From Trypanosoma brucei (lineage: Eukaryota): a stretch of DNA of 64,000 nt. This document shows positions 594-30,436 of the stretch, piece by piece. The stretch lies in assembly GCA_000002445.1 (NCBI GenBank), contig CM000208.1, positions 3,008,001 to 3,072,000 of the forward strand. Reading direction: 5' to 3'. Every line of letters starts with the position of its first letter. Position 1 is the stretch's first letter. The position numbers were made by a program, and so were the translations under genes. The notes beneath the pieces were generated by a model that did not search any database, was not told the DNA's origin, and was given only the letters and a program-made list of their open reading frames with translations.

Positions 594-639
594 GATCCGG
601 ACGAGTGCTGCCTAACTACGCGGAAGAACATACATTATC

Positions 640-5155: not shown

Positions 5156-5651
5156 GATTTTTTCCGATATTCTCCAATACCTTTCCTTTGTTCTTTCTTG
5201 CCGCGGCTGCTTGATTTTGTTGTGTGTGTCCAAACGTGTGTCTTTCTTACAGATTTCTCCAGTGAGTTTCCCACGTGTGCGCAATTACAATAGTCACTAC
5301 TGCGCACGCTTGTATGGCTAGTTCTTTGTGATCAACGGACTAAATTAAAAAAAAAAACGCGTTACCTATAATAACCGCGATATCATTTGTTTTGGCGACA
5401 GTTTCGGGGGTGAAGGGGTAAATTTTATAGGGTTGTATTAAGTTATATGAGACGACAAAGGTTACTTCTGGGAAGCCTCCCCGGGGGATTACCATTACGG
5501 TAACCTTCCCGAGGTGTTGTAAAGAGCGAGTTTTGGAAAAGAAAGAAGAGAAAGGGTGACCACAAATGCTGTCTACTTCGTTCTCCTTTTTCTCTCCTTC
5601 TACCTCACAGTTCTTTCTTTCCCGTTAGATTTAGGTAGCCAACTTAAAACA

Positions 5652-5703
5652 GTAATAATAATAATAATAGTAATAATAATAATAATAAATCGTAATAATA
5701 ATA
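5652..5703. repeat. (AAT)n trinucleotide microsatellite, imperfect, about 15 units
   Basis: Read directly from the sequence. Confidence 0.9.
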
Positions 5704-6105
5704 GGTGGTGGTTCTGTGTCGTTGTAGCACGGTGGGAAGAGTGTTAGGATGCCTTGATAAGCCCCTGTGCATGCGTTGAACGCTCATCTGTTTTCCTTTG
5801 ACCACTTCCAACGGCCCTGACCCCACATAATCCCGTGGGCCCGCTTACCTGTATACATCCACAAACAGTCGTAGGGGTGTTGAGGTGCTGTGTATACAAG
5901 ACAGAAGGCGTTTCCCCACAAGAAAATAATAATAATATAAAGAAGTCCTGGGCAACACGTGCACTGATACCCCACACTCACCGAACTCTGTTACACATCG
6001 TGTCTAAAGTGCAAAAGGGAAGATGGGTATGAGAAGCATCCATCACGGAAACCGAATAACTTTCTTCCCCTTCCTCACATTCGTGCTTATCACGAACCTC
6101 CTCTC

Positions 6106-8541: not shown

Positions 8542-9209
8542 GTGAATTGGCTCTTTTGTGCTTCACTTACCTGAAGTTTTCCCTTGCAGAACTTGTATTT
8601 AAATCACTCCTTTCTTTGCTCTACTTCGGACAAGAGAAAGGGGGAAAAGGCAGCAATGCAGAGGAAGGATCTGGGGAAAAGGGACCGAGGAAAAATGTAT
8701 TCATGCAAAAAACAAACAAACAACACTCGGACACAAGACTCTCCCGGGTTGGATTGAGTTTTCCACACCTCTCCTTCAAACCTCGACAAGCAACGGTCGC
8801 ACCTCGGCGCCCCATGTGTGCTGATGACTTGCGACGAGAACGTTGGAAGGGAAGTGGAAGAAAAAAAAAACATGAAAGGATAATGCGCAACTATGTGACG
8901 CAACACACAGCAACTGACACAGAGAAAACACTAAACCGCGTTAAAGTATTTCCACCCTCATTTCCTTTTTTTCTAAAATCATCCAACCTTCCCCCATACC
9001 CTTCAGAAAATGCACAAACTGATACCCACAGCAACACAGTGCGTAGAAGCAAAGATGGTGGCAGATCATCAAAGAATGCAGCTTCTTACCTTCGCCAAAC
9101 TCCTTATATTGTTCCAATGGCTGTGCGAGGGCAAACCCTGTACGACACATAAAGTGGACAACTTCACAATGCTACTGGTTACTTGAGTAACTTTGATAGG
9201 GCACGCAAC

Positions 9210-13920: not shown

Positions 13921-13921
<1 letters not shown>

Positions 13922-13959
<38 letters not shown>
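13922..13959. repeat. (TA)19 microsatellite, followed by a degenerate TA-rich tail to about 13980
   Basis: Read directly from the sequence. Confidence 0.95.
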
Positions 13960-13965
<6 letters not shown>

Positions 13966-14812
13966 TACCTATATATGTATTTGTATTTGTGTGTTTGTAT
14001 GTTTTATTTTTTGTTCTTCCCCCCTCCTGGCTGTATCTTTCCCTATTTCCTCCATGCAATAATTCGATACGATGACAACAACCTGAAGGAGGTGTGGATT
14101 AACCAAAAGGGTTAATTTATTATTTGTTTCTTTTCTTTTTTTTTTGTGTGTGTGCGTATTTATGTGTGTCTGTGATTCCTGTTTTTCCTTTTCATCCCTT
14201 TCCTTTTCTCCTCCTGTTTTTTCTTTTTTAAATATGGAAGGGTAAAGGAAGGAATGTGAAATGAACACAACGGTGGACCACCGCTGCTAAACTACTCTCC
14301 CGCAGAGACACTACAAAAACGGTAAGAGACGCTACACAACTCTCGCTTCAGCACCGCGGCGAAATGCTCAAAAAAACAAAAAACAACAACAACAACAAAA
14401 AGAAGAAAAAAGAAAACGATGTGTGCACACTTCTTCAGAAAGGCTCAGGGTGGCGGAATAAAGGGGTTGAGGAAGAGATGCAAAAAAAAAAAAGAAGGAG
14501 AAAAGAGCCAGTACGATATCAAACTTTAAGAAGCACATCTCCCCTGACTTCCTGCCTGACCCGGTTTGTTCAGCATACACACACGACACTTCAAAATAAA
14601 AAAAAGGAGGGGGGGGGGAGGAAAGCGAAGTACTAATAACGAAGAAAGAAAAAAAACAAAAAAAAAGGCACGAAGGTAGTGACATGAGGCGCTACTTCCC
14701 AACAAATAAGATAGAAAAAAGTTTTCCCCATCACGATGAATACAATTCACCAGAAAAGCTGGTGGTACAACACATGATGCCATGCGGGCAGAGGCATTAC
14801 AACACGTGGTGT

Positions 14813-16237
14813 TTACCTCGCGTATGGCCAATTTAAAGGAACAGTGCCATCGTGTCCGGGTATTTGAGAGTTGTATAACTGCCATACATCCCCCAACGGC
14901 TGCGGCCGTGGCTGTTGAATGGTTCCGGTGCAACGTCGCTGCCCTGCGCCAAGAGTTACCACCGTGCTCAAAAACGAGCCATCAAAAACAGGTTGAACCG
15001 CCACTGCTTCAGCAGCGCCACGGGGGAGGAAAAGTAACGTTCCCACCGCAGCGGGATCATCCAACTGAGGAGACGGAGCAACGGTAATTGTCCGCGGAGC
15101 CGCTGCCTGTTGTGCCATGATGGAGACAAGTTGTGAGAGAAGAGTATTCATTTGATCTTGTGGAACTGTTCTGCCCGTTGTAGCGGAAGCATATCCAGTG
15201 CCGCAAACCCCCGCTGTTCTTAATGCGGCAAGTATTTCTTGGGTATTGGTGTCTCCCATTGGCGGTGTAGTGGCGGAGGGGCTACGTGGCCCTGAAGTTG
15301 GCTTCTGAGGGGCATTTTGTGGGAGACCACATGTTCCATTTAATCCTTGTCGAAGCGCCATTTGCACAACGGGACTTGGTTCAAAGGAGGGTGAACTAAC
15401 GTTGGGCACCCACCCGGATCCTCCATCGTGTCGACCTTCTTCTGGTGCTTTCCTCATCCCTGCGCTATGTTCTTCTTTATTGAAACCGCTGCCGTTATTT
15501 CCAACGACACTCTTTTTCCCCTTGATATTGTTGGAGTGCTGAGGAGATGTGCATGCTGAGGCATTTGGTTCAGCAACAACCTTTGGTGCACGCTTGAAGG
15601 CACCTTGTGCGTTTGGATCAACGCAAACAACATGGATAAAATTGCATCGTTCCCCAGTAAAACAGGTTTGGTTCGTTTCAAAGTACTTGCAGCGGATCAG
15701 CGGCTCAGCAATGTCATGACGGGCACAAGCTCCGCGCGTGTTAAGAACTTGTTCACTGGGGATTAAATTTACGGTAGTCATATCAGCGGAAAGAACCTCC
15801 AAAACTTCTCCGGCTGGTAGCCGTTCGTATGTACATTCACTCTCGTGGCGCCATATGTAATTCACATGAATGGGATGCGTCTCCAACGTGTTGTAATCAA
15901 CATCGGCATGAACAAATTTGCAACCGCTACCCATGGTGCATGAACTCGGCTCATATGATTTATAATTGCGGCAGGCCACCAACCGGGTAATATTCAACCG
16001 TGCTGATGGCATGTGCACTATGAGATGTGAAGGAACCTCATACAAACACTTAAACTCGGCGTCAAATACTTTTGTTAAATTAGCATTCGCACAGTTCTCG
16101 GTGCTGACACTCAACGGAAAATTTGTGCTTCCACACAACTCATTGCTTTGTTTCCATTGTTCCCAAATTTCATCAATTGCCCACATCGGCAACAACTCGT
16201 TGTCCATACTGTCCCCCTCGATAATATCCATCGTCAT
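14813..16237 (-). CDS. CCCH zinc-finger RNA-binding protein, the longest and most divergent paralog of a four-gene tandem array (474 aa). It has no C-terminal HNPY motif.
   Basis: Shares with the three downstream paralogs the block VFDAEFKCLYEVPSHLIVHMPSARLNITRLVACRNYKSYEPSSCTMGSGCKFVHADVDYNTLETHPIHVNYIWRHESECTYERLPAGEVLEV, followed by a second C-x8-C-x5-C-x3-H finger (CKYFETNQTCFTGERCNFIH). The C-terminus is a long Gly/Pro/Ser-rich low-complexity region. Confidence 0.75.
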   Translation of the reverse strand: MTMDIIEGDSMDNELLPMWAIDEIWEQWKQSNELCGSTNFPLSVSTENCANANLTKVFDAEFKCLYEVPSHLIVHMPSARLNITRLVACRNYKSYEPSSCTMGSGCKFVHADVDYNTLETHPIHVNYIWRHESECTYERLPAGEVLEVLSADMTTVNLIPSEQVLNTRGACARHDIAEPLIRCKYFETNQTCFTGERCNFIHVVCVDPNAQGAFKRAPKVVAEPNASACTSPQHSNNIKGKKSVVGNNGSGFNKEEHSAGMRKAPEEGRHDGGSGWVPNVSSPSFEPSPVVQMALRQGLNGTCGLPQNAPQKPTSGPRSPSATTPPMGDTNTQEILAALRTAGVCGTGYASATTGRTVPQDQMNTLLSQLVSIMAQQAAAPRTITVAPSPQLDDPAAVGTLLFLPRGAAEAVAVQPVFDGSFLSTVVTLGAGQRRCTGTIQQPRPQPLGDVWQLYNSQIPGHDGTVPLNWPYAR

Positions 16238-19200
16238 CCAGTGGGTCGGGAGGTGTCACCTCACCCTTCTTTTTTTCTTTTATTTTTTTGCCTTCTGTGG
16301 TAAAACCACACCTTCCCTTCACAATTATTGTTTCCTTTCCCTTCCTTTTTGGTTTACACTATTTTTCTTCGCTTATTCACTGTAACTTTGGTCACTTTTC
16401 ACGCCTTCAGTTTGTCTCTCACCTCGTTGACCTTCAACCGCGCAAATGTGAAAAGGGGAAAGGACGTCAAAAGAAAAAAAAGAAGGGTGAGGTGAGGTTG
16501 AAACATACAAACACACACACACATATATATATATTAGTCGAGCTACCGAGGCATTTATTTTTTGTATTCAGCAGCAAATACTTAAATGCACATTTCCATA
16601 CTGTGTAACATAACACAAAGTATTATCACATGCATATGCATAAGCAGAAAGACAAATAAATACATTTAATTGCCAGCTTGCCATTCGCAAGTTATTTAAG
16701 GTTCCTCCTTTTTTTTCTTTTTTAGGAGGAGGAGGAGAACATTCCGTTAGTTTTCATCACACCAATTGCGTCCATAACCGACGTTTAGTCACCGCAAATA
16801 CGACATTTCCCCCCGTTTCTGCACGTCATTTACTATATATATATATATACAAATTATACTATATGCATCTAACTGTACAAAATAAAATATAAATGGATAA
16901 CTAAAAAACAAAAAAGAATAATTATACGGAGAGAGAGAGAAAGAGAGAGAGCGCGTATGTGAAACGTTTATTTGAGATGAAAAGTGACTCATGTCGACTC
17001 AATTAAACCATCATGAGAGGGGGGGGGAAGAAATAATTAAATAAAAAACAACAAATCACAGAAACAAAATAATGTTAAAAAAGAAAAAAAAAGAAAACAT
17101 TGGAAAAAAATGAAGTGTAGGAACAAAAAAAATGTTGGAAAAAACGACGAAATAAACAAAGTACGTAAAAAAAAAATAAGCAAATAAATAAATGGTGTGG
17201 AGCTTTTTTTTTTTTGATGAAAATAGGAAGGGATACTGAAAAAACATACCAAGAAAAAGAAAAAAAAGGCAAAAAAAATAATCCCAATAAATAAAATCAA
17301 GTAAAGGAGATAGAGAGGGGAATGAAAATAATGAAAAAAAAAAGATCCAAACGACCCACTGAAAAAGAGAAAAGACGAGGGCAAAAGCAAAGGCAAAGGA
17401 GGAAGAAGGTGACAGAGACAGTTTCAAAAAATAAAAAAAAATAAAAAGGGGAGGAGGGGAATTAGTTGGTGGAGTGGAGTGTAGGAGGAATAAAAAAGAA
17501 AAGAAGAATGGAAGGAAGGAAGGAAGGGAAGTAAAGAAAAAAAAAGAAGGTAAAATAATATAAGTAATATAAATGATATAATTATATACGCACATGTCAG
17601 GCAGCTTCAAAAATAAATAAACAAACAAATAAACAGAAAGAAGGGGACAAAAAAAAGTTTTTTTAAAAAAAATTATGATATAAAGATAAAATGAGTAAGG
17701 GGTTCGAGTTATATAAAAATGGTGGAAGCGACCGCAACGCGTTGAGGCCCCGAATGAACGGAATGAAAATTACCGGCAGTGCTGCTGATTTCACACACAC
17801 ACCACACACCACACACGCAAAAAGAAAAAAATAAATAAAAATAAAAATAGACAGACAAACAACAGCCACACAAACAAACACTTCCCGTAGATTAGAGAGT
17901 ATAAAAAGGTACCAACTTATAAATTCCGTGGCCCGTATTCACGTTGAAGGAAAACAAAAATATATATTAATATTATTAATAAGTAATGAAAAATGTGCGG
18001 GTGGTAGGTGAAGAGACAATAAATTGGCATAATGAAAACTCACATAATTCTACTCGCTTCCCACATATTCGCCGCAGAAATACGCGCATAAAAATACGCG
18101 ACAGTGAAATCAGGCGTGTCAGTGGTTGCGTTAGTTCGTATTTATTTTTTCTTTTTTCTTGTTTTGTCTTATTTTTCTTTTTATCTTACTTGACTTTTGC
18201 TTTGGCATCAAAGAAGGATTGGAAAATTATGTGGGGAGGGGAGAAACGAGGATAATAATAATAATAATAAAGGGAAGGGAGTGACAATGGGAAAAGGTAA
18301 ACAAGAGGGGAAACTAAGTTAAAGTAATAAAAATATGAAAGTAAAGGGTAAAAAGTCGACACAACAAAAATGAGAACGTGTGTAAATTAGTGGCCCATTT
18401 AAAAACTTAAAGAAAGAGGGAAAAAAAGAGTAAAGTAATGTTTATTTGTTCGCTGCGTATTTATTGGCAAGTTGAACGATGCAAAAATAGGAGAGAAATT
18501 ATGTTGGGGCATAGGGAATAGTTGCTCCGCCTCCCCACCCTCTTTAGAACCATCAGCATCGTGTTTTGTTCTCTTTTTTTTCTTTTTTTTTTCATTTTAA
18601 AGGTTTCTTGTAAATGTTGCTATAGTATATAATGAAAGGTAATAATCCCACAAAAATAAATGCAAACATTTATATATTCATACATTCACACAAAAACACT
18701 GCTTTTCGGAGTTGGCGGAGGGATATGAGCGTTTTTAAAACCACACGTATGCGTTAGCGGAAGATGATACGCACAAAATAAAGTTTAAAAGAAAGGAATT
18801 GGGTAAAAACAAAAAGAAAAACAGAAACAAAAAAGGAAGGGAAGGGAAGGGAAGGGGAAAAAGAAAAGAGAAAAAGGGATGATGCATGCCCGGGGAAACA
18901 TATAAATGGATATGCAAATATATAAACATATATGCAAGTGTCAGATCATATAAAAATGCAAACATATATAAGTGTCAGGTCATATAATGACTTAAACAAA
19001 CACATATATAAATTTATATACATTAATTTACTTATACATATTTTTTTTTTAAAAAATAACAAAAATAGTTTAGGGAGGAGTAAGACAAAGACGATAAGGA
19101 AACAAAAAAAAATATTCAAACACAAAGCTCAAGTGTCACATTATTTCATTTCATTTCATTTCTTTTGTTTTGTTTTTTTTCTTTTTTTAAAAAATACCAC

Positions 19201-20669
19201 CTTTTTTTTCTTTCCTTTCCTCCTCTTTTTCTTTACCTTTTTTTTCTTTCAAAAATGGGGTAGTGAAAAGAAGCGTCGAAGGAAATTATATTGATAATAA
19301 TTAAACACTAAAATGAGAGAAAATAAGTAAATAAACAAAAAAAGCAATCACAACATGATGAGATGAGGTGTACATAAGGGGAAACTCATGTCAGTCGTGT
19401 TTTGCCTTGTTTGACCCCGGTCATACGTGTAGAAGTGGAGAAATAAAAATAACGATAAGAAAAAAAAAGAAAAGAAAAAGAAACAACACGACACAGAACA
19501 AGTAATGTTACGTATATGTTTTTTCTTTTGTTTTCAACACACCAAAACAAAATAAATAAATAAAAGAGGGGGCGTAAGGTTGAAACTAGTTATGCGTATT
19601 ATCATTCGGAAATGGAAGCGACGAAATGTTTAAAGGAAAATAAGTTAATTAAATAATAGAAAAATGGAGGGAAATGCGGAAAAGCTCTCGTCATTGGCCT
19701 ACATTTCATATTTGACCTCGAGGCACGTTATTTTTCTTAAAATTTTTGTGTTATAAATGCCGAAACGACAACGCCAATAATTATGGTTGTATAATGTGAA
19801 AGGAGTTAAAACCAATAGGAAAAAAAGACAAAAATCAGAAAAAAAAAGAAGGAGGATGGAGGGAGAAAAACAAAACAATATATCAGTAATAATTCAACAA
19901 ATAAAACGCTCCTCAAAAAGTCAAATATGTCTCATAATCGGTACCCTTCTACAACATATAAAAAAAACCAATTCCCCACAGTCGTATAGTTCGTGGCTAT
20001 TTTCTTTGCCTTATATTCAAGTTTCTCCATCTTTTTTTTCCTTTTCACATAAACCACAAATGTATGCACATACACGCCGATGAAGAGCCCTCTTTACCCC
20101 TCCCCCCCTTTTTTTTTTAAAAAAGAAAATTTAGTTCTTTCTTCATCCCATGAATCCGCTCAAATAAATAAGTAGAAAGACAAACCAAAGACAAAAAAAA
20201 ACTTAAAGACAATCCCAATAAAAATAAATAAAATAATAAAAAAATATATACTTATTATCTTATATTATTTCCTCCACCCCCTTTTTTTCCCCCACTGTCT
20301 TGTCTCCCCTCTCCACTCCAAAACCCACGCAATGTCCCCCTTTCCGTTGTCATATTTCCTTCATCAGTTATCCTCTTGCTTCGTATTTCTCTTTCAATTC
20401 ATACGTGCACTCGTATATTTTATTGTACTTACTCATAACCATATATATAAAGATATGCTTGTACGTTTGTTTATACGCACATAGGTTATACACAAAGGGG
20501 AAGTCAAAAGGCAGAGAGACGAGTAACGAGAAAGAAAGAGAAAGAGAGAGGAATAGAGAAGGAGAAAATAAAAAGGCACACATATACAAACATATATATA
20601 TATATATATAAATGTTTGTGTGCTTGTGTGTATATGTATGCATTGCTGTATGGATTGAAATATTCATCT

Positions 20670-21620
20670 TTATGACCTGCAGAGAACAGGATAGTAAGGA
20701 TTATGGCAATATGAAGCGGGCCGTGAGTTGGTTGCCATGGCGCTCCGTCTGGAGACTGAAGCATCGCTGAAGGCTGCAACAAGTGTCGGTCGGCTCTTCA
20801 CGACGGTACTCGTGCGGACGCGTGCGGTCACTCGGCATCGTGGAATTACGCTGCATGTTGCTGGAAGTGGCTCACCAGCGGCATCTACACGAAAAGACAA
20901 GGCGGTGTAACCGCCTGCTCCCATGGATAACGCTGGCGCCTCACGCTCCGGTGACGAAATGCAGAAGTCGCTTAACATCGGAGTCCCGCTTGCAAACGTA
21001 CGCGGCATCTTTTGAGAATCCGTGGCACTCGCGACTGCAGGGGACCTCGGCGTTGGAGTTACGGCTGCGGTACGGGCGGGTGCCCGTTTAAAGTCACCCA
21101 CAACAGTCGGGTCAACACAAAGTGTATGAATAAAACTGCATCGCTCGCCACGGCTGCACATTCGGTTGGTTGTATAAAGAGGGCAACGCATCAGTGAGTG
21201 CGGGAGTGCATTATGGTGTGCCACTGACCCGCGTGTGACGAGGACAAGTTCGCTGGAAATAAGTTCATGCTCTTGAGGGTTTTCCTGTGAGCAAACCTCC
21301 AAAACGTCTCCAGCTGGTAGCCGTTCGTACGTGCAATGGTCCTCATGGCGCCATATGTAATTCACATGAATGGGATGCGCCTCCAGCGTGCTGTAATCAA
21401 CATCGGCATGTACGAAGCGACAACTTTCCTCCTTTGCGCAGGAGTTTGGAACGCCAGATCTGTAATTGCGGCAAATCACAAGGCGGGAGATATTCAACCG
21501 TGCTGGTGGAACATGTAAAACAAAGTGGGCGGGCACCAGGTAAAGGTACTTGAAGTTGGGATCAAATACCTCCATGACGCCGTTTTGAACGTATTTGGCG
21601 CGATTGTCCTGCGATGACAT
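20670..21620 (-). CDS. CCCH zinc-finger RNA-binding protein paralog (316 aa from the MSSQDNRAKY start) with a C-terminal YCHNPY motif
   Basis: Same two-finger core (EVFDPNFKYLYLVPAHFVLHVPPARLNISRLVICRNYRSGVPNSCAKEESCRFVHADVDYSTLEAHPIHVNYIWRHEDHCTYERLPAGDVLEV; CPLYTTNRMCSRGERCSFIH). Start chosen at cat 21618-21620. The track ORF's extra 89 N-terminal residues (to 21887) are F/L-rich and AG-rich low complexity, translated from the upstream polypyrimidine tract and 5'UTR. Confidence 0.75.
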   Translation of the reverse strand: MSSQDNRAKYVQNGVMEVFDPNFKYLYLVPAHFVLHVPPARLNISRLVICRNYRSGVPNSCAKEESCRFVHADVDYSTLEAHPIHVNYIWRHEDHCTYERLPAGDVLEVCSQENPQEHELISSELVLVTRGSVAHHNALPHSLMRCPLYTTNRMCSRGERCSFIHTLCVDPTVVGDFKRAPARTAAVTPTPRSPAVASATDSQKMPRTFASGTPMLSDFCISSPEREAPALSMGAGGYTALSFRVDAAGEPLPATCSVIPRCRVTARVRTSTVVKSRPTLVAAFSDASVSRRSAMATNSRPASYCHNPYYPVLCRS

Positions 21621-21789
21621 ATTTCCACTTCCTTGTCTTTTCTTTTCCTCCCTTTTTTTTTCTCCTGCTTTCCTTTTGCAAGCGTTTCCTGTTGTCACGT
21701 TCAAACCGTTATCCGCTGTGCGATGCTTACTTTGTTTTAACTTTAAGAAACTGAAGATGAGTGTATTCGGCTTAACTTTGATATTTAAA

Positions 21790-21890
21790 CCAAACCAGGT
21801 TTGCAAAAAATAAAAAAAGGGGGGAAAAAATTGAAATCCATGAATATGCTTCAGAAAGAGAAACAGATAAGAAAAGTATGCACACAAACC
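21790..21890 (-). promoter_or_regulatory. Coding-strand polypyrimidine tract (purine-rich on the plus strand), the likely trans-splicing and upstream-polyadenylation signal for the zinc-finger gene starting at 21620
   Basis: The plus strand reads ...caaaaaataaaaaaaggggggaaaaaattgaaatcc...cagaaagagaaacagataagaaaag. Kinetoplastid SL trans-splicing needs a polypyrimidine tract on the mRNA-sense strand upstream of the AG acceptor (established knowledge). The placement is my inference. Confidence 0.4.
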
Positions 21891-24497
21891 TTTTTATAGT
21901 TTAACTTTCCAGTTTCCCTTTTCTCCTGGTCTGTTGGATGGGGAGTGCGGTGCCAATGTTAACACACTTCCCTCCCCCTCCCCTCCCTAACAAAAACAAA
22001 AAAAAAACAAAAAAAACAAAAAGACGAGAGAAAGATGGAGAGAGAAAAAAAGAAAAAGAAAAACGCTGTAAATTCCGTTTTTATTCCTTCTTAACCCTCC
22101 TAATGTAGAAAAAATAAAATTTAAAGAAAAAATCTCCTGAATAAGTAAACGAAAAAGGAAGAGAATGGGGGAAAAAAATAATTAAAAAGCCCCCGGTAAA
22201 AAAAATAAAATAAATACTCCACTAACGAACGATTTCGCCCTCACAGGCATATTTTTCTTTTGTTTTTTTTTTAAAACTTTTCCTACCTCTCCATTACACT
22301 TCTCTGTTTTAATTAATCACTTTGGCCTCTTTTTTTTCTTTTTAACACCCTCTCGTTTCGTTTAGTTCGAGCTGTTAAATTAAACTTAAAAAAGAAAAAA
22401 AAGGAAAAAAAAATCACGCTCACAAATGTTAAATGTGTTGCCGCAAGTCGAAGAGAAATAAGAAAGAGGAAGTAAAAAAGGGATAAAAAGACAATAAAAT
22501 CCAAAATAAAAAAAAGTGAAGGTAAAAAGAGTTTTTCCCCTTCACAAAGTGAACCAACTAAATTAAAAAAAGCTGATAATAATAATAATAAACTAAGAGT
22601 AGAAAAAAAAGGTTTTCTCCCACATAAATCCATTTAATAATAATAACCATCATCATCATCGAAAGAAAAGAAAAAAGTATAATGAAATAAGTGAAGAAAA
22701 ACAATAAATAAAAATAAAAAAGAAAAAAAAAGACAAGAAAACAAAACAAAACAAAATGCAAACAAAGAAACGAAATAAAACTAAAAAATTAAGACGACGT
22801 GAGTGTGCTCTGTGTTTGCAGCTTGTGCAACTACACTGTGTGGGATATCCAACACCATATGGTATCTTACATATGGTTTGGTACATATTTTTCACATAAA
22901 TGTAGCAGAAACACATTTAAAGCATCATCTTTCTTTTTTTTTTTGTTATTGTCCCCCTTCTTTCCCTCTTTTCACACACCACCTTCATCTAACGCACATT
23001 TTAAATCCATTTACATGCACATGTATGCATTTAATTCACTTTCATTCGTTAATTTATTCAATCATACACATATATTCATATATGTATATTCTTTTCATTT
23101 TCCTATCTCTCTATCTCTCTATTTCTTGCCATTCAGTTTTTAATGTCCATCAGGTACCGGTAACTTTCATAAAATTATAAACAGTTATTGTATGAAGGAA
23201 AATCAGAAAGTGTCGGAGGAGGGGAAATAATAAATGAAAGAGAATTCCCTTTTTCATTTTTTTTTCAAAAATAAAAAAAAATGAATTACTTCAATACATA
23301 AACTTAAGCTAATCGAAACAACTGCAGCCACAAAAACCAAAGGAGAGTTTGTTTTTTTTTTTAAAAAAAAAGAAAATTTGAGGGAAACGAACAAAATAAC
23401 AAAACAAAAAATTTTCTCTTCCCAACTTTTATGACGTAACGTAATGACAAATAAGCATAATTTTAAAAGGAAATAAAATGGGACAGGGGGAAAAGGCTGA
23501 GTAAGCTCAAATGATAAATCACAGTGATATAAAAATCAGTGTATCATCAGGAAAACAATAAAAAAAAAGACTAAAACAAGGGCGTTAGTACAGGAGTGAA
23601 AATAAATCCCGCTGCATTCCCATTTAAAAAAAATGAATAAACAATACATGAGGAGTAAAGAAAAAGGAAGTGAAAATATATATATATATATATATATATA
23701 ATTATTTTTTAAAAAAGAACGCACTCCATCGAAAAGAAATGCGGAAAGTGTGGGAAGAAATCGGTACAGGAAGAAAAATAAAATGCACATGGTTGTGGCC
23801 AGTGCCCAAGTGATACAAAATGATTCAAAGAAAAAAAAAGAAAGAAAGAAGAAAGAAGAGAAACTAAAGACGGATGCGACGTAAGGCCCGTAGGAACTTG
23901 AATCCGCTTTTCTCTTCTTCTTATTTTCTTTGTGCATCATTTTCTCCTCGCGGAATAAATATGGGTACAAATATATATATATAGATAGATAGATACATAT
24001 ATAAGTAAACGTAAAAACAAAACAAAACTCAAGGTGAGGTGTCACAGCGCATTAGATCTTACTATATTATTATCATTAATATATTTTTTTTTAAAAAAAG
24101 GAAATGAAAAAGCATAAATGAATTCGGCGTTACGCCCACTCTAAAACGTTTCATAATGAAACAAACGAAATGACGCATAAAAGAAGTCACTCAAACCAAC
24201 CCAAAACCTTTAAAGGCCCATGGCCGCCGATAACATTCGATATCTCGATAGTATTAATTTAACGAACGGTAAACAAACTAAAAAAAACCACAAACTAAAA
24301 TAATGTGCGATAAAAAGGGTTTAAAAGAACATGAATAAGAAAAGATAAACTAATAAGTTTATTATTAACAATATATGAGAGTAAAATAAAGGAAAAGGAA
24401 CGAAATAGAGAGTTAAAAAAAAGTGGGGAAAAAGACGCACCTCCCACCGAACAACTCATCACTGGTTACAATTAAACTCAGCGAATATTATCCTCAT

Positions 24498-25358
24498 TTA
24501 TAACCCGTAAGGATTATGTCGGTAGAAACGTGGGCGCCGAGGAGCACTGCCATCAGAAATGGTGTTCATGTCAGATGTAGTGCAATCATCATGTTGATGG
24601 CCACTTCCAGAAAGTCCGAGATGCCCGTTATCGCGACCTGAAGTGGGACTCGTCACATCGCTACTGCCGACGGAAGGAACTCTTTTGTGCACAACCATCG
24701 CGAAACCAAGTGGCGTCCCATCGGGAAATGAACCGGGAGAACTGTCGAGAGGGCTCCCAGCTGATAATTTTTCTCCGGATTTATTACCACTGGCGTGATG
24801 GCGCCGATGAGAGCGGCAAAGAATACGATTGGAGCTGAGATCCACTTCAGGGTCGACGGCAACAGCATGAACAAAGTTGCAGGACGCGCCACGATGACAT
24901 ACGCCATTAAAATAGTAATGTGCGCAATGAGAAAGTGGTCTTCCCTCCGCAGAGGGCTGTGGAATAACTGCTTGTGTAACAAGAACGAGTCCGCTAGCAA
25001 TCCTCTCAATTGGTTTTTTATTATTGGGAAGCAGAACCTCAAGCACATCACCCGATTGACAGCGTTCGTATGTACATTCACTCTCATGGCGCCATATGTA
25101 ATTCACATGAATGGGATGCGCCTTCAGCGTGCTGTAATCAACATTGGCGTGTAGAAACCTGCAATCGCTACCCGCAAGACATGAGTTCGGGTCGTAAGGT
25201 TTATAATGAGTACAAATCATTGTGTACGGGTTGCTTGGATGCACATGTGGCATGTGGACCACTGAATGAGAAGGTATCTCGTACATGTACCTGAACTCTA
25301 TATCAAATACCTCCACAGTGGTTTTACGGTTTTTTGCCATAGATTTCTTTGAGGGCAT
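24498..25358 (-). CDS. CCCH zinc-finger RNA-binding protein paralog (286 aa), ending FYRHNPYGL
   Basis: Fingers C-x10-C-x5-C-x3-H (CTHYKPYDPNSCLAGSDCRFLH) and C-x8-C-x5-C-x3-H (CAHYYFNGVCHRGASCNFVH). Near-identical at nucleotide level to the 29528-30436 gene over about 810 nt. The C-terminal [FY]RHNPY matches the MKT1-interaction motif described for trypanosome RNA-binding proteins (established knowledge). Confidence 0.8.
   Translation of the reverse strand: MPSKKSMAKNRKTTVEVFDIEFRYMYEIPSHSVVHMPHVHPSNPYTMICTHYKPYDPNSCLAGSDCRFLHANVDYSTLKAHPIHVNYIWRHESECTYERCQSGDVLEVLLPNNKKPIERIASGLVLVTQAVIPQPSAEGRPLSHCAHYYFNGVCHRGASCNFVHAVAVDPEVDLSSNRILCRSHRRHHASGNKSGEKLSAGSPLDSSPGSFPDGTPLGFAMVVHKRVPSVGSSDVTSPTSGRDNGHLGLSGSGHQHDDCTTSDMNTISDGSAPRRPRFYRHNPYGL
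24505..25317. repeat. Copy A of an approximately 0.81-kb segmental (tandem-gene) duplication. Its partner is at 29531-30346.
   Basis: Long runs are identical between the copies, for example ggattatgtcggtagaaacgtgggcgccgaggagcactgccatcagaaatggtgttcatgtcagatgtagtgcaatcatcatgttgatggccacttccagaaagtcc (24510-24617 and 29536-29643) and the whole zinc-finger-encoding block. An internal patch of about 120 nt (24618-24736 versus 29644-29771) is unrelated and is flanked by re-convergence at gagaactgtcgagagggctccc. Confidence 0.85.
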
Positions 25359-28300
25359 TATGTCTTTGCTTCAATAGTTGCTTTCTTTTTTTCCCCCCTT
25401 TTTGTGCTTCTTGCTGTTGCTTTGTTGGTGTTTTCTTATGCTTTTTTTCTATTGTGTTTGCCATGTGTCCATTTTTTTTTTTTTAGTTTATGGTGAGGAA
25501 TGACAAAGAATAAGAAAATTAACGGAGGATAAATTTGATCAAATAAGAAGTTTTCGCATGTATACAGACAAATCAGTTGATTGGTACGAATGTTAATACA
25601 AGAAGATATTACGCTCACCCTGAACCACAAGGAAGTACATATTACAAAACTAAGAAAACAGCAACAGCAACATTATTTAAATTGGAAAGAGAAAAGAGTC
25701 ACAACACCAAAAAAACGAAATAATTATTTTCTCATGCTTTACCGTCAGCACTTACTGAACACATCACCACACAATGGGAAATTGCGAAGATGTTGTGTTC
25801 AAGAAGTGGGAATGACAGCACTAGATGAAGAAATAAGTGATTACAACGTCTGACTTCATCATCCCTTCTTCTTTCCCGCGCAAATTTATGACAAGTAGAG
25901 GAGATTATTAAGAAAAGAGGAAAAAAAAACAATAAAAAACAATAAAAGAACAAAGAAACGAAAAAAAAAGAGGAGGATGAACACATACGCGCACGTTCTT
26001 TTTCCCCACCCGTGACCCCGAGAGTCACGCTTTCGCTTAATCATCCCACACCCCATATTTTCTTTCCCTTTATTTCCTTCAGTTACCTTCGTCTTTTTCT
26101 TTCTTCCCCTCATCTCTCTCTCTCTCTCTTATTTTCTTTTTTTTTTGTTTTTTGTTTGTAAGTTAAATTGTAGAGGAGTGTGCGTATGCATTAAATCCAT
26201 ACCTTTCTTCACTATTTTTTTAAAATTTCTTTTACCTCTCCTCCTATTTTTTATTCTCTCTTTACCTTTTGTTAACAAAACAAAACAAAGAAAAAATTAC
26301 ATAATTTCTCCCTTCTCCTCTTCCTCTTCCTCCTTTTTTTTCTCTCTCGTTCTTTCTATTTACTCTGTTTCCTTTAATATTTTCACAAAAAAAAACGGTA
26401 AGACGGCATTAACGACACCGGTAGAAACATTTGGAAGAAGCAGAGGAGGAAAAAAAAAAGAAAGAAAGCAATTAGAAGGGAGAGTTAAAAAAGGTACATC
26501 CCCAAAATAAGACATTAACAAAACAAAACAAAGGAAAAAAAAGAAAAAAGAAGACAAACACGAACACAAAAACACACACACACACAAAAAAAAGAAACAA
26601 TGATCGGCACAGTTTGTTATTATTTACTACTGCTGCTGCTCATTTTTTTTTAATTTGTTTATTTGGATTTTTCTTTTATTCTCTCATCGCTGTTTGAGGT
26701 ATTTGGAACGATTATTCATATCATATTCATCTTCCCTCGCGTGTTGTCTTCGTTTTACATCCACTCGACTCTCCCTCATTCTATCTTCCCTTCCCCTCCA
26801 ATTGCGTCAAATCAATAAAAAAAAGAAAAGAAAAAAAAAGACAAAGACAAAGAAAAATGCGACTAAACCCTTCGCACCTCTTTTATCTTTATCCTTGCTT
26901 TTTTTTTTAAAAAAAAGAGAAATTTACAAAAATAATAACAATAATGATTTTAAAAAAGTTTCATTATTATTTTTATTATTGTGGTCATATATATATTTCT
27001 TTTCTTTTCTTTTCTTCTTTTCTTTTCTTTGTTAAAATTTGAAACATTTGTCTCTTCCTTTACACTCTTTCTTTCTTTCTTTCACCCTTTCTCTCTCTCT
27101 TTTCTTTCCCCCTTCACATACACTTAAACTTGAACTTTTCATTCCTTCACACCTTCATACAACATACACATATGTGCGGTGACTCGCATTTTAGTTCCAT
27201 CGCCACATTATTTTACTCCGCAAGCACTTCAATATAATATATATATATATATATATATTTATTTATTTATTTAAAAATAGAAGAAAATTGAGAAACAAAC
27301 GAAAAGAGGTTGAGGAATAGTAATGGCGGAGGTGATGAGGCAAACGTGTTGCTCCCAACTAATACAGCTGCGGGTCCGACGGCAACTTCTGTTTTTTTCT
27401 TTTCTTTCCTTTTCTTTTCTTTTCTCTTCTTTTCTTTCCTTTTCCTTCATCTTTTTTATTCTTTACTTTACCTTACTCTTCTCTTCACTTTTATTTATTT
27501 ATTATATATTTGTTTGTTTCTTCATTCTTTTTTTCTTCGTTTTTAAATCCCACCGCTGCGAAGTGATGGTCCATTTTTCTTTTCCTTTGTTTTTCGAAAT
27601 TGCAGGACAGAGGAGTAAAATGCAAGAGCGTGTAAAAAGAAGTTGTTGAAGGAAGATACGAAAGAAAAAAAAAGGAGGAGGGGGGGGGGTGAAATAACAC
27701 ACCGGAGAAGGGAAAGAGACAAATAAAAAGAGAAAAAAGAAAGGAAGAAAGAAAAAAAAATACATATATTGACTGAGCGAATAACTGAGTAGTTCTTCTT
27801 TCTTTTTTTTTCCTTCTTCTCTTTTTCTTCCTTTTCTGTTAGGGTTTCTCAGCATTCTGACATTATTTATTATTTTTTTTGTTGTTGTTTCCCCTGCCAT
27901 AAAGGAGAGGAACATGGAGTGGAAGGAAGTTTGGAGATAAATAGGGAAAACATGATTGAGTGAAGTGGATTGGGAAGTCATGGCGTAACCCGTTCCATTC
28001 ATTACGTTGCATATATATATATATATTATTTTGCATTTGTTTGTTTGTGTTCATTGTGTTGTTGTTGTTGTTGTTTTTATCTTCTAGAGGGTAGTTATGA
28101 CGACAACAGAGGCTCAGCAAGCAAAATAGTAGTAATAGACAATAATAATAATAATAACAATAGCAATAGTAATAATAATAATAAGCACTAAAATTAAAAT
28201 TTTCTCTTCTTTATATTTTAAAAACAGAGCAATACCACCTTTCCATATCCGACATTTTACTCTTGCCTCCTTCTTAAGATTTTCACTCGTGTTATTATAT

Positions 28301-29428
28301 CAACCTTAGACAAAATTGCCATGAACGGACGAACCCCTCTCATTAGTAATATTATTATCAACGCTATTATTTCTTTTTTTTTTCCCTCCCTTTTAAGTTG
28401 ACACTCCCTTCTCCATTCTCTCATTACATTGGATCTCTTATTTTTCTTTGCTTTTTTCTTTTTTAAAAAAACATTCTCATTTATCTATCTGTTTGTTGTT
28501 CCTTCACTAACCACTATATTTATATTTATTTATAACAGAGGTTACCGCAGAAATTCTTAAGGAAAAGCAAATCAAAATATATTTTGTTGTGGCTCTCCTT
28601 CGATTTCTCTCGCTCTTTTTTCTTTTCTTTTCTTTTATTTATTTTTTCTCCCACACCACACCACGTGTTGTGGTATGCGGAAACGGAGCAGCGGGACGCG
28701 AAAGTGTGGAGAAATAATAAACAAAATCGGGCGTGCCACATGCAAAACAAAAAAAAAGAAAAAAAAAGAAAAGAAGCGGATCTACAGAACACAGGTACGC
28801 TCCAGCAAATACCTGTAAGGCATATTAAGCAGCAATACAAATAAACAAGAAAAAAGAAAAGGAAGAAGAAAAAGAAAAAGAAAAATGACATTTGCAAGGA
28901 GGGTAGGCGGGGGAAACGATCGTTAAAGTAAAAAAATTCACACACATTTTCATTTCTTTGTTTGTTTTTCTTTTTCTTTTGTATGAACCACAATCATGCA
29001 GCATCGTTTCTGGACGTTTGGCTGCCTTCTCTTTCCTTCTATTTTTCCGTTTCTTCATCTCTTTGGTTCCTTAACAAAAAAAAAAAAAGAGTCGTATCCG
29101 TCACGACCGTTCACGTTAATAAAAGATATGTTGTGAATTTAAACTATTTTCGATCGACCCCGCAGTAAAACAAAACGCAAAAAAAAAAAATTCAACAACA
29201 AGAGCAAACGAACGAAAATTAAAACGGCAACGGCAAAAAAAAACGCGCCTTTTTTTACGGTATGAAGGGAAAGGAAGATTGAGGAAAAGAAAACACGCAT
29301 AGTATCACTTCGCCCACAATCAAAATGGACGCACCCAAAAAGGGCCGCAGGGATCAGACAAAAAGTTAAAGTAAAAAAAAAGAAAAAGAAAGAAAAAAGA
29401 AAGGTGGACAAACGGGGGAGGGGAAACA

Positions 29429-29430
<2 letters not shown>

Positions 29431-29461
<31 letters not shown>

Positions 29462-29462
29462 A
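29431..29462. repeat. (ACA)n trinucleotide repeat, about 10 units, immediately 3' of the zinc-finger paralog at 29528
   Basis: Read directly from the sequence. Confidence 0.9.
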
Positions 29463-29527
29463 TTACAAACAAGTCCACAAGACGAGTGCAGCAGAGTAGA
29501 CTAAATGAGAGAAGGGATTCCCCACAT

Positions 29528-30436
29528 TTACAGCTGCTGGTAAGGATTATGTCGGTAGAAACGTGGGCGCCGAGGAGCACTGCCATCAGAAATGGTGTTC
29601 ATGTCAGATGTAGTGCAATCATCATGTTGATGGCCACTTCCAGAAAGTCCATATTGCATACTTCCAACTGCAGAGGCGGAAAATGATGAGCCGCTGTAAA
29701 CTGTAGAAGGGGCTCGCTTACAAACCATTGTTGCAATGCTGGCGGGTACTCCTGCAGCACACGGGTTCGGAGAACTGTCGAGAGGGCTCCCACACGCCGT
29801 CTTCACAGCGGATTTATTACCACTGGCGTGATGGCGCCGATGAGAGCGGCAAAGAACACGTTTGGAGCTGAGATCCACTTCAGGGTCGACGGCAACAGCA
29901 TGAACAAAGTTGCAGGACGCGCCACGATGACATACGCCATTAAAATAGTAATGTGCGCAATGAGAAAGTGGCTTTGCCCTCGGTCTCCGGCGAGGAATAA
30001 CTGCTTGTGTAACAAGAACGAGTCCGCTAGCAATCCTCTCAATTGGTTTTTTATTATTGGGAAGCAGAACCTCAAGCACATCACCCGATTGACAGCGTTC
30101 GTACATACAGCACTGCTCGTGGCGCCATATGTAATTCACATGAATGGGATGCGCCTTCAGCGTGCTGTAATCAACATTGGCGTGTAGAAACCTGCAATCG
30201 CTACCCGCAAGACATGAGTTCGGGTCGTAAGGTTTATAATGAGTACAAATCATTGTGTACGGGTTGCTTGGATGCACATGTGGCATGTGGACCACTGAAT
30301 GAGAAGGTATCTCGTACATGTACCTGAACTCTATATCAAACGCACTGGTCACATCAGTTGCTGTGGTCATCTTGACTTTGTTTGGTTCTTCTTGATATTC
30401 TTCTCTTTCTTGATGAACTATTCGGTGCTGTGCCAA
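29528..30436 (-). CDS. CCCH zinc-finger RNA-binding protein paralog (302 aa; alternative start MTTATDV at 30373), ending FYRHNPYQQL
   Basis: Recent tandem duplicate of the 24498-25358 gene. The zinc-finger core is identical, and the N-terminus, an internal patch and the 3' flank have diverged. A purine-rich plus tract at 30440-30520 is a coding-strand polypyrimidine tract immediately upstream. Confidence 0.8.
   Translation of the reverse strand: MAQHRIVHQEREEYQEEPNKVKMTTATDVTSAFDIEFRYMYEIPSHSVVHMPHVHPSNPYTMICTHYKPYDPNSCLAGSDCRFLHANVDYSTLKAHPIHVNYIWRHEQCCMYERCQSGDVLEVLLPNNKKPIERIASGLVLVTQAVIPRRRPRAKPLSHCAHYYFNGVCHRGASCNFVHAVAVDPEVDLSSKRVLCRSHRRHHASGNKSAVKTACGSPLDSSPNPCAAGVPASIATMVCKRAPSTVYSGSSFSASAVGSMQYGLSGSGHQHDDCTTSDMNTISDGSAPRRPRFYRHNPYQQL
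29531..30346. repeat. Copy B of the approximately 0.81-kb segmental duplication (partner at 24505-25317)
   Basis: See copy A. Similarity ends at about 30346 on the 5' side of the gene, where the N-terminal coding sequences diverge, and at about 29531 just beyond the stop codon. Confidence 0.85.

Follow-up and report, generated by a model that had tools for sequence, protein, structure and literature searches.

Tandem two-finger CCCH paralogs with stage-specific expression have been described in Trypanosoma brucei at the ZC3H20/ZC3H21/ZC3H22 locus (chromosome 7, Tb927.7.2660-2680). There, ZC3H20 and ZC3H21 carry an HNPY motif and activate when tethered (122-fold and 65-fold, respectively), and the third, longer member, ZC3H22, represses. 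The prototype adaptor linking HNPY to MKT1 is ZC3H11 (Tb927.5.810), a CCCH protein and tethered activator in which HNPY is needed for MKT1 binding and a separate C-terminal region, also required for activity, binds PBP1. In the VSG mRNA stabilizer CFB2 (Tb927.1.4650), a C-terminal (F)RHDPY is sufficient for MKT1 binding, a nonapeptide being enough. The complex engaged by such motifs, MKT1–PBP1–LSM12–XAC1, recruits poly(A)-binding protein and EIF4E6–EIF4G5. The docking motif (Y/W/T)(R/T/Q)H(N/D)PY was derived by Singh et al. 2014 (PMC3985637), who also gave a looser consensus among confirmed partners, (H/N)(D/E/N/Q)PY.

The ZC3H35–ZC3H38 genes, named by Kramer et al. 2010 (PMC2873481), resemble the chromosome 7 cluster in that ZC3H36, ZC3H37 and ZC3H38 correspond to its activating, HNPY-bearing members and ZC3H35 to its longer repressor. 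The two clusters are nevertheless different families: in ZC3H20-22 both fingers are C-x8-C-x5-C-x3-H, whereas finger 1 of ZC3H35-38 is of the C-x10 type, and ZC3H20-22 were not among the homologs of ZC3H35-38 in any homology search. The mRNA targets of ZC3H20 and ZC3H21 are defined, while none are defined for ZC3H35-38. In ZC3H11 there is just one finger, and HNPY is central (residues 196-199), whereas ZC3H37 and ZC3H38 have two fingers and a terminal motif; only two to three residues follow HNPY in these two proteins, and therefore a downstream PBP1-binding region is not possible. The extreme C-terminal arrangement is instead that of CFB2, although CFB2 is an F-box rather than a CCCH protein and its RNA target is known. 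We consider it very probable that the region Tb927.10.12740-12800 encodes four proteins with a shared core, that the HNPY tails of three of them recruit MKT1, that ZC3H35 represses and that the genes are regulated by their own 3′UTRs.

The ZC3H35–ZC3H38 genes and their shared core

The window, a 64,000-nucleotide stretch of T. brucei DNA, contains the following genes and core features:

14813-16237, minus strand: ZC3H35 (Tb927.10.12740), CDS 1425 nt, 474 aa; exact match to EAN78650/XP_823478; primer match
20670-21620, minus strand: ZC3H36 (Tb927.10.12760), CDS 951 nt, 316 aa from the first ATG; EAN78651; primer match
24498-25358, minus strand: ZC3H37 (Tb927.10.12780), CDS 861 nt, 286 aa; EAN78652; primer match
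29528-30370, minus strand: ZC3H38 (Tb927.10.12800), CDS 843 nt, 280 aa from the ATG at 30370; EAN78654; primer ATGACCACAGCAAC
15908-15973, minus strand: ZC3H35 finger 1 (C-x10-C-x5-C-x3-H), residues 89-110, by regular expression
15632-15691, minus strand: ZC3H35 finger 2 (C-x8-C-x5-C-x3-H), residues 183-202 by regular expression and 182-203 by Pfam
24867-25325, minus strand: predicted ZC3H37 structured core, residues ~12-164, the fold reaching ~residue 175

All four proteins are identical, residue for residue, to the T. brucei brucei TREU927 chromosome 10 products EAN78650, EAN78651, EAN78652 and EAN78654, and the source-record names for the matched proteins include ZC3H35 and ZC3H37. For all four gene IDs the window agrees with the published CDS lengths and with the cloning primers, whose 5′ ends ATGACGATGGATAT, ATGTCATCGCAGGA, ATGCCCTCAAAGAA and ATGACCACAGCAAC coincide with the four start codons. 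The window is TREU927 reference sequence and the cluster consists of the named ZC3H35-38 genes; nothing differs. A first-pass annotation of this DNA had reported four minus-strand genes sharing a two-finger CCCH module, which the open reading frames and motif matches bear out, and had likened the locus to a "ZC3H36-38" cluster, correctly, the exact protein matches identifying the fourth, long member as ZC3H35. Position 30436, which it gave as the ZC3H38 start, is a TTG codon; starting from the first ATG, at 30370, the gene fits the published CDS length and primer. Upstream, the cluster is flanked by a 1521-nt cytidylyltransferase gene (Tb927.10.12810) and downstream by 2709-nt and 2436-nt (HSP70-family) genes (Tb927.10.12720 and.12710). 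The gene order in Trypanosoma vivax is likewise cytidylyltransferase, 37/38-like, 36-like, 35-like, HSP70.

Similarity among the paralogs is far above chance (E-values of 1e-42 to 1e-60), ZC3H37 and ZC3H38 being 82% identical as proteins. Regular-expression searches located one C-x10-C-x5-C-x3-H and one C-x8-C-x5-C-x3-H finger in each protein, both fitting the C-x(7-10)-C-x5-C-x3-H ligand spacing of CCCH proteins, and all eight Cys/His ligand columns are invariant in an alignment of 50 homologs. Both fingers lie in a ~165-aa core common to all four proteins, within which HPIHVNYIWRHE is invariant in 4/4 paralogs and the fingers are separated in each case by 72-74 conserved, beta-rich residues. 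The conserved block described in the first-pass annotation is thus real, but its motifs are not uniform, as ZC3H35 has FxCxY rather than FxYxY and ZC3H38 has CMYER rather than TYER. Pfam PF00642 (zf-CCCH) scored ZC3H36 at 22.2 bits, above the gathering threshold of 20.5, and ZC3H35, ZC3H37 and ZC3H38 below this cut-off, at 19.8, 15.0 and 15.0 bits; the scores are marginal because the domain is short.

Modeling of ZC3H37 predicted that both fingers lie within a single compact, beta-rich domain and that the tail after it is disordered, and a comparison of this confidently predicted fold with solved folds found no relative. The two fingers of TTP/TIS11 (PDB 1rgo, 1m9o) share the x5 and x3 spacing of ZC3H35-38, but in TTP both are of the C-x8 type, have conserved lead-in sequences and are joined by a short linker of ~18 residues. 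Profile similarity to 1rgo and 1m9o was weak (E = 0.05-0.28) and limited to finger 2. By finger spacing, linker and the lack of a fold match, ZC3H35-38 fall outside the TTP/TIS11 tandem-finger type. The core is kinetoplastid-specific and presumably binds mRNA.

HNPY tails and MKT1

HNPY motifs were found at three positions in the cluster:

20694-20705, minus strand: ZC3H36 HNPY, residues 306-309, in SYCHNPY plus 8 further residues
24507-24518, minus strand: ZC3H37 HNPY, residues 281-284; the protein ends FYRHNPYGL
29540-29551, minus strand: ZC3H38 HNPY, residues 274-277; the protein ends FYRHNPYQQL

Of the three proteins previously said to end in HNPY, ZC3H37 and ZC3H38 do so, whereas in ZC3H36 another 8 residues follow the motif. 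ZC3H35, the longest member, has no H[ND]PY anywhere, as had been proposed, and the motif is also absent from 10/10 ZC3H35 orthologs searched. ZC3H36 orthologs from T. vivax, T. grayi, T. theileri, T. melophagium, T. cruzi and T. rangeli keep Y[CR]HNPY[HLKY]P, and Bodo homologs carry HHNPY. The proteins form three orthogroups across Trypanosoma, each consistently with or without HNPY; judged from these sequences, the split is ancient.

That HNPY is an MKT1 docking site was already published by Singh et al. 2014 (PMC3985637). In the same study ZC3H37 and ZC3H38 were manually confirmed as MKT1 two-hybrid partners in yeast and V5-tagged ZC3H38 coimmunoprecipitated weakly with MKT1; MKT1-TAP purification yielded neither protein. 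Tethering gave strong activation by ZC3H36, ZC3H37 and ZC3H38 (50-, 65- and 49-fold, respectively) and repression by ZC3H35 (Table 2; Erben et al. 2014, PMC4055773). The subfunctionalization suggested in the first-pass annotation therefore corresponds to published data, the HNPY paralogs activating and ZC3H35 repressing.

ZC3H37 and ZC3H38 carry YRHNPY, which fits the strict consensus, ZC3H35 fits neither consensus, and ZC3H36 (YCHNPY), with Cys in place of R/T/Q before HNPY, fits only the loose one. As the ZC3H36 motif departs from the strict consensus at the −1 position and is not terminal, ZC3H36 could be read as activating without MKT1, leaving ZC3H37 and ZC3H38 as the only true recruiters; Table 4 of the MKT1 study includes these two and omits ZC3H36 (PMC3985637). 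However, that table is one of selected partners only, the ZC3H36 motif matches the consensus of confirmed partners and is kept in all ZC3H36 orthologs, mostly as YRHNPY, and ZC3H36 activates as strongly as 50-fold. We regard MKT1-independent activation by ZC3H36 as unlikely and infer that ZC3H36, too, binds MKT1.

Spacers, 3′UTRs and stage-specific expression

The cluster spacers and the features within them are as follows:

11919-14812, minus strand: spacer downstream of ZC3H35, 2894 bp, GC 0.35; ZC3H35 3′UTR and Tb927.10.12720 5′UTR
16238-20669, minus strand: spacer downstream of ZC3H36, 4432 bp
17667-20669, minus strand: annotated ZC3H36 3′UTR, 3003 nt, with five UAUUUUUU (RBP10-type) motifs
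21621-24497, minus strand: spacer downstream of ZC3H37, 2877 bp, GC 0.31
25359-29527, minus strand: spacer downstream of ZC3H38, 4169 bp, GC 0.33
27502-28002: Tb927.10.12790 (EAN78653), a low-complexity ORF in the ZC3H38 spacer, annotated "T. brucei spp.-specific protein"

The spacing of 4-4.4 kb given in the first-pass annotation holds for two of the three internal spacers; that between ZC3H36 and ZC3H37 is 2.9 kb. Its observations that the spacers are far longer than others in the window and skewed in purine/pyrimidine content were confirmed: the four measure 2877-4432 bp, whereas the median length of the other 16 is 682 bp and the longest of them has 1786 bp; of the 100-nt windows in the four, 20% reach a purine or pyrimidine content of 75% or more, compared to 4% in the other spacers. 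GC content is 0.31-0.35 in the cluster spacers and 0.37-0.48 in the others. Self-BLAST found no spacer-to-spacer similarity, returning only CDS similarity and low-complexity matches, and so rejects a true tandem-repeat unit with repeated spacers.

The idea of long regulatory 3′UTRs is borne out for ZC3H36, whose mRNA is bound by RBP10; its 3′UTR sequence and length, a motif count of 5 and ∼7-fold enrichment of the mRNA with RBP10 are given in the supplement of Mugo & Clayton 2017, and we reproduced the UTR sequence and the count of five motifs on the window. Polypyrimidine tracts are so numerous in the cluster spacers (9-20 in each) that the sequence does not locate the 3′UTR ends of ZC3H35, ZC3H37 and ZC3H38. 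Developmental regulation, also proposed in the first pass, agrees with published stage-specific mRNA levels for three of the genes: expression of ZC3H36 is high in proventricular tsetse forms, ZC3H38 is a marker of the slender bloodstream form and ZC3H35 is up-regulated in skin infection.

Could the spacers instead conceal other protein-coding or noncoding RNA genes? Tb927.10.12790 is annotated in the ZC3H38 spacer, and ∼1.2 kb separates the annotated ZC3H36 poly(A) site from the likely ZC3H35 splice-acceptor tract. However, every spacer ORF of at least 70 aa is a low-complexity translation of a pyrimidine or purine tract, and only 1/8 tested was found in any database, as a T. brucei-specific entry. 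An Rfam scan of the spacers, run with permissive E-values, found no family at even half its gathering score, and the spacers contain no tRNAs. Matches to mir-3149 and mir-1277 were subthreshold and due to chance, lying in AT-rich palindromes and (TA)n tracts, as was one to Plasmodium RNase P (40 bits vs. a gathering score of 100). Moreover, the ZC3H36 UTR takes up 3.0 kb of its 4.4-kb spacer, and in T. vivax and T. cruzi, where synteny is kept, the 36-like and 35-like genes are likewise followed by long spacers. Hidden genes are thus quite improbable, and we favor regulatory UTRs.

The high similarity of the core, with HPIHVNYIWRHE invariant, and the 82% identity of ZC3H37 and ZC3H38 might be taken to mean that the four genes are redundant copies in which it is incidental whether HNPY is present or not. 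This is hardly credible, as it is already contradicted by the opposite tethering activities, by the consistency of the HNPY state within each orthogroup and by the unrelated 3′ spacers and differing stage expression.

The ZC3H37/ZC3H38 mosaic and the ZC3H35 C-terminal block

The ZC3H37 and ZC3H38 coding sequences form a mosaic in which blocks of 100% identity alternate with unrelated patches. The identical blocks total 624 nt and span the core and the MKT1-docking tail, the longest run being 221 nt in copies 5 kb apart. As the two genes share every nucleotide of their final 37 codons up to HNPY, the earlier statement that the termini differ completely is false for this pair. Five intervening islands are as dissimilar as random sequence, and one replaces RRRPRAK with QPSAEGR, a basic-to-neutral swap immediately before finger 2. 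Compensated frameshifts were rejected as the source of the patches by gapped DNA alignment (patches 2-4, z = 0.6, 0.7 and −0.2 vs. shuffles); the 16-nt patch 1 was marginal (z = 2.5 vs. shuffles). The pattern points to gene conversion, which may keep the 624 nt identical so that the two genes evolve in concert. The randomlike divergence of the islands and the basic-to-neutral swap suggest that these persist through selection for paralog-specific RNA or partner specificity.

Identical runs of this length, 5 kb apart, might mislead an assembler, and the mosaic could then be an artifact of collapsed or chimeric reads. We find this very improbable: ZC3H37 recurs in the independent assemblies of T. 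b. gambiense DAL972 and T. b. equiperdum and ZC3H38 in that of DAL972, gene-specific primers served to clone both genes by PCR and the divergent patches partly agree with the single-copy T. congolense and T. vivax orthologs.

In place of HNPY, ZC3H35 has a conserved C-terminal block of its own:

14942-15160, minus strand: ZC3H35-specific block, residues ~360-432, ~75 aa, including the motif GTLLFLPRGAAEA

Its conserved core, GTLL[FY]LPRGAxEA, is common to ZC3H35 orthologs. Residues S389, P390, L392, P395, G399-L402, L404, P405, G407, E410, A411, V417, D419 and G430 are invariant in 11 Trypanosoma orthologs, and homologs from Leishmania, Leptomonas and Porcisia have GTLLYLPRGA[SV]EA close to the C-terminus. 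A phmmer search of the whole library with the block returned ZC3H35 orthologs and nothing else apart from P0073, a bacterial-looking repeat protein whose match, a repeated LDDPxAVGSLL string, is spurious. An AlphaFold2 model of ZC3H35 from an 11-sequence alignment had a mean pLDDT of 34 and is unusable for the fold of the block. We infer that the block is a candidate effector (repressor) region. The ZC3H35 orthogroup may have exchanged HNPY for its own trypanosomatid-wide linear motif, SP.LD.P...GTLL[FY]LPRGA.EA....PV, which could be a docking site for a repressive partner and a negative counterpart of HNPY. The C-terminal LNWPYAR of ZC3H35, with NWPY two residues from the end as in ZC3H37 and ZC3H38, is scarcely conceivable as a decayed HNPY, a reading rejected on the ortholog alignment: the Trp but not the PY recurs in the ortholog tails, which are ANWSNIR (T. 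congolense), AQWSHS (T. vivax) or a different ...AW[MV]xGV end (T. cruzi, T. grayi, T. rangeli and T. conorhini), W at position 2 lies outside both published consensuses and tethered ZC3H35 represses.

The mechanism that we favor builds on points established here or published, namely identity, motifs, the MKT1 two-hybrid interactions of ZC3H37 and ZC3H38, tethering, RBP10-bound ZC3H36 mRNA and stage-specific mRNA. Four paralogous, cytoplasmic CCCH mRNA-binding proteins would be produced from one polycistron transcribed in the order 38, 37, 36, 35. The disordered C-terminal tail would set the fate of mRNA bound by the core. In ZC3H36, ZC3H37 and ZC3H38 the short linear HNPY motif would dock MKT1 and bring in its partners PBP1, LSM12 and XAC1, and poly(A)-binding protein and EIF4E6–EIF4G5, recruited in turn, would leave the bound mRNA stabilized and better translated. 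ZC3H35, lacking HNPY in every species examined and carrying the other conserved block, would repress its bound mRNA. Transcription being polycistronic, each paralog would be controlled individually through its own long, AT-rich, unrelated 3′UTR, for example by the RBP10 sites in ZC3H36, giving stage-specific expression.

The first-pass account is largely right but was already published for these same genes, and its main points therefore represent no new biology. The additions are the ZC3H35 C-terminal motif, the ZC3H37/ZC3H38 conversion mosaic and a predicted core fold without a solved relative. That ZC3H35 has its own motif replacing HNPY and that ZC3H37 and ZC3H38 evolve in concert, both of which may be undescribed, we propose jointly and tentatively, as possible rather than probable. 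These additions offer handles for finding the repressor partner of ZC3H35 and the RNA targets of the four proteins. Trypanosome gene expression is controlled almost entirely after transcription, and therefore such RNA-binding proteins and the MKT1 complex that they recruit take the part played in other organisms by transcription factors. This locus is a clear case of one presumed RNA-binding scaffold being combined with activating or repressing tails, and with a separate 3′UTR for each gene, to yield stage-specific regulators.

Identity of the tandem CCCH genes

The first-pass annotation had proposed four minus-strand open reading frames in this region, and all four are present. Because T. brucei is a eukaryote, we accepted only ATG as a CDS start; the fourth frame, previously begun at 30436, which is a TTG, has its first ATG at 30370. 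The resulting gene models are:

14813-16237, minus strand: ZC3H35 (Tb927.10.12740), ATG-start ORF, 474 aa
20670-21620, minus strand: ZC3H36 (Tb927.10.12760), ATG-start ORF, 316 aa
24498-25358, minus strand: ZC3H37 (Tb927.10.12780), ATG-start ORF, 286 aa
29528-30370, minus strand: ZC3H38 (Tb927.10.12800), ATG-start ORF, 280 aa

As described previously, each of the four proteins harbors one C-x10-C-x5-C-x3-H and one C-x8-C-x5-C-x3-H finger, and 72 to 74 residues separate the two motifs in every case. The conserved core that holds both fingers also stood, with the four proteins aligning over ∼165 residues and HPIHVNYIWRHE invariant in all of them. Homologue searches gave paralogue E-values of 1e-42 to 1e-60, ruling out chance similarity.

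The four proteins are identical, residue for residue, to the T. brucei brucei TREU927 proteins EAN78650, EAN78651, EAN78652 and EAN78654 (4.05 Mb contig). Supplementary data of Erben et al. 2014 (PMC4055773) list CDS lengths of 1425, 951, 861 and 843 nt for Tb927.10.12740,.12760,.12780 and.12800, and the 5′ ends of the cloning primers from that study correspond to the start codons of all four genes in the window. The flanking genes Tb927.10.12810 (1521 nt, cytidylyltransferase-like),.12720 (2709 nt) and.12710 (2436 nt, HSP70 family) agree in length as well. Together, these data identify the genes as ZC3H35, ZC3H36, ZC3H37 and ZC3H38, names that go back to Kramer et al. 2010 (PMC2873481), whose CCCH census also discussed tandem CCCH loci. 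The locus has been correctly re-identified as a known one, whose genes are named and, in part, characterised.

Two nearby genes showed additional features. The upstream neighbour Tb927.10.12810 (31427-32947, minus strand) encodes 506 aa whose N-terminal region resembles CDP-alcohol phosphatidyltransferase (E = 5e-5) and whose C-terminal part matches a cytidylyltransferase domain (E = 2e-16); judged by these matches, two consecutive steps of phospholipid synthesis appear to be fused in one protein. In the 1013-aa protein encoded at 34734-37775 (minus strand), residues 711 to 808 weakly match the phytochelatin synthase family (E = 2e-7).

HNPY motif, orthogroups and ZC3H35-specific modules

The HNPY motif of ZC3H11 is needed for binding to MKT1, and two-hybrid data yielded the motif (Y/W/T)(R/T/Q)H(N/D)PY (Singh et al. 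2014, PMC3985637). In that study ZC3H37 and ZC3H38 were manually confirmed, HNPY-containing MKT1 interactors, and coimmunoprecipitation of V5-ZC3H38 with MKT1 was weak. We find HNPY in the three members for which it was first reported, namely ZC3H36 (SYCHNPY), ZC3H37 (FYRHNPYGL, then stop) and ZC3H38 (FYRHNPYQQL, then stop), and confirm its absence from ZC3H35, which ends in ...PLNWPYAR. Contrary to the first description, the ZC3H36 motif is not at the very C-terminus; eight residues come after it. Singh et al. 2014 (PMC3985637) report that the final four amino acids of ZC3H37 are HNPY; the reference sequence differs, with two residues following the motif in ZC3H37 (GL; 24498-24506) and three in ZC3H38 (QQL; 29528-29539). 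When ZC3H37 was modelled in AlphaFold2 from an alignment of 50 sequences, residues ∼12 to 175 were predicted to form a single compact, predominantly beta domain enclosing both fingers, with 10-residue block means of 85 to 97, the majority >90, over residues 11 to 170, and residues 180 to 286 were predicted to be disordered. Such a predicted disordered tail fits a short linear motif at a flexible end.

In a genome-wide tethering screen, ZC3H36, ZC3H37 and ZC3H38 scored as activators (50×, 65× and 49×, respectively) and ZC3H35 as a repressor (Erben et al. 2014, PMC4055773); suppression of boxB reporters by ZC3H35 is restated in a later preprint. MKT1 forms a complex with PBP1, LSM12 and XAC1, through which poly(A)-binding protein and EIF4E6-EIF4G5 are recruited. 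Thus, MKT1 docking, sub-functionalisation and long regulatory 3′UTRs, the interpretation offered at first pass, are each supported and had all been published previously.

Three Trypanosoma orthogroups emerge from homologue searches and from neighbour-joining analysis of the core. ZC3H35-like proteins (470 to 620 aa) lack H[ND]PY in all 10 species; ZC3H36-like proteins carry Y[CR]HNPY[HLKY]P followed by a tail, which measures 6 to 16 aa in every orthologue but one; and ZC3H37/38-like proteins carry YRH[ND]PY followed by 2 to 3 aa. HHNPY is present in Bodo saltans homologues, indicating that the motif is old within the family. Gene order is kept across T. brucei, T. vivax (cytidylyltransferase, two to three 37/38-like copies, 36-like, 35-like, HSP70) and T. 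cruzi (genes of 313, 437 and 580 aa).

We considered whether LNWPYAR of ZC3H35 is a decayed HNPY and rejected this, as orthologues show ANWSNIR, AQWSHS or ...AW[MV]xGV there. ZC3H35 orthologues share two modules, neither of which is covered by Pfam: an N-terminal helix motif, IDEIWEQWNQxNDL (residues 21 to 34; 16135-16177), and a C-terminal block (residues ∼360 to 432; 14942-15160) with invariant SP.L..P...GTLL.LP.G..EA, which includes the motif GTLL[FY]LPRGA.EA. As GTLLYLPRGA[SV]EA, this motif also occurs near the C-terminus in Leishmaniinae homologues, those of Leishmania, Leptomonas and Porcisia, which are ∼620 aa long. When 1.84 billion representatives were searched, the block turned up in ZC3H35 orthologues only, bar one match judged spurious. 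The C-terminal block is a candidate effector region that may underlie repression by ZC3H35.

Intergenic spacers and 3′UTRs

The sequences 3′ of the four genes have a GC content of 0.31 to 0.35:

Spacer 3′ of ZC3H35: 2894 bp
Spacer 3′ of ZC3H36: 4432 bp
Spacer 3′ of ZC3H37: 2877 bp
Spacer 3′ of ZC3H38: 4169 bp

The longest of the window's 16 other intergenic spacers is 1786 bp; their median length is 682 bp, and their GC content ranges from 0.37 to 0.48. Hence the cluster spacers are indeed far longer than others in the window, but the range of 4 to 4.4 kb first given does not hold for that between ZC3H36 and ZC3H37 (2.9 kb). The reported purine/pyrimidine skew is borne out: in the four spacers, 20% of 100-nt windows consist to 75% or more of either purines or pyrimidines, compared to 4% in other spacers. 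Long spacers recur after the 36-like and 35-like genes of T. vivax (3162 and 4971 bp) and T. cruzi (4091 and 3434 bp), supporting function in these spacers.

Rfam and tRNA scans recognised no RNA genes in the four spacers, and no credible ORFs were found in them. One gene is annotated in the spacer downstream of ZC3H38:

27502-28002, minus strand: Tb927.10.12790 (EAN78653), 166 aa

This T. brucei-specific prediction, annotated as a "T. brucei spp.-specific protein," consists of pyrimidine and purine tracts read as low-complexity protein and is unlikely to be a genuine gene. Sub-threshold Rfam miRNA matches (mir-3149, mir-1277, mir-297) were dismissed as spurious, as they arise from (TA)n and AT-rich palindromic tracts in each spacer:

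13922-13980, 20574-20644, 23676-23700 and 27232-27270: (TA)n/AT-rich palindromic tracts

According to supplementary data of Mugo & Clayton 2017, the ZC3H36 3′UTR is 3003 nt long and has five UA(U)6 motifs, and mRNA enrichment with RBP10 is ∼7-fold for ZC3H36, ∼2-fold for ZC3H37 and 1.8-fold for ZC3H35. We reproduced the start of this 3′UTR and its five-motif count on window positions 17667-20669. Counted over each complete spacer, there are 9 copies of UAUUUUUU after ZC3H36 (2.1 expected), 4 after ZC3H37 (1.8), 1 after ZC3H35 (0.3) and 1 after ZC3H38 (0.6). Within 16238-17666, the annotated ZC3H36 poly(A) site (17667) is separated by ∼1.2 kb from a polypyrimidine tract that starts ∼215 to 265 nt upstream of the start codon of ZC3H35; this stretch either is intergenic and unassigned or belongs to an alternative, longer ZC3H36 3′UTR. 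Expression is not uniform across the paralogues: in proventricular tsetse forms, ZC3H36 mRNA ranks with the most abundant transcripts, ZC3H37 mRNA falls upon ZC3H20 RNAi, ZC3H38 is a common slender bloodstream-form marker, and ZC3H35 is up in skin infection and copurifies with ZC3H28.

The ZC3H37/ZC3H38 mosaic

The claim that the N- and C-termini of the paralogues differ completely is false for ZC3H37 and ZC3H38, whose likeness is confined to the CDS and stops at its edges, the UTRs being unrelated:

24507-25307 and 29540-30340, minus strand: aligned CDS segments of ZC3H37 and ZC3H38, forming a mosaic

Six runs of 221, 110, 110, 48, 24 and 111 nt show zero differences, amounting to 624 nt with no synonymous changes, and are separated by patches of 16, 22, 5, 16 and 118 nt with 25 to 60% identity. 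Given the overall identity of 87.7%, a single identical run of such length has p ∼1e-13. For three of four patches tested, similarity was no higher than for shuffled sequence, even with gaps allowed. The simplest reading is that the two genes duplicated long ago and have since undergone recurrent gene conversion, with a handful of islands shielded from homogenisation. That 37 and 38 come out as sisters in the neighbour-joining tree is therefore no reliable guide to the age of the duplication. The 37/38-like amplification in T. vivax is independent of the T. brucei pair and much more recent; its tandem unit is 3.73 kb, with copies 99.65% identical including UTR sequence. The T. vivax array lies at 1-9193 of SOPI01000011.1 and on a second contig, and copy number differs between the two.

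We used the single-copy proteins of T. congolense and T. vivax to judge the ancestral state of the patches. For the 118-nt patch, that state survives in ZC3H37. Directly before finger 2, the basic patch RRRPRAK is ancestral and kept in ZC3H38 (29972-29993), whereas in ZC3H37 (24939-24960) it is replaced by the neutral-to-acidic QPSAEGR, a difference that may alter RNA affinity or specificity.
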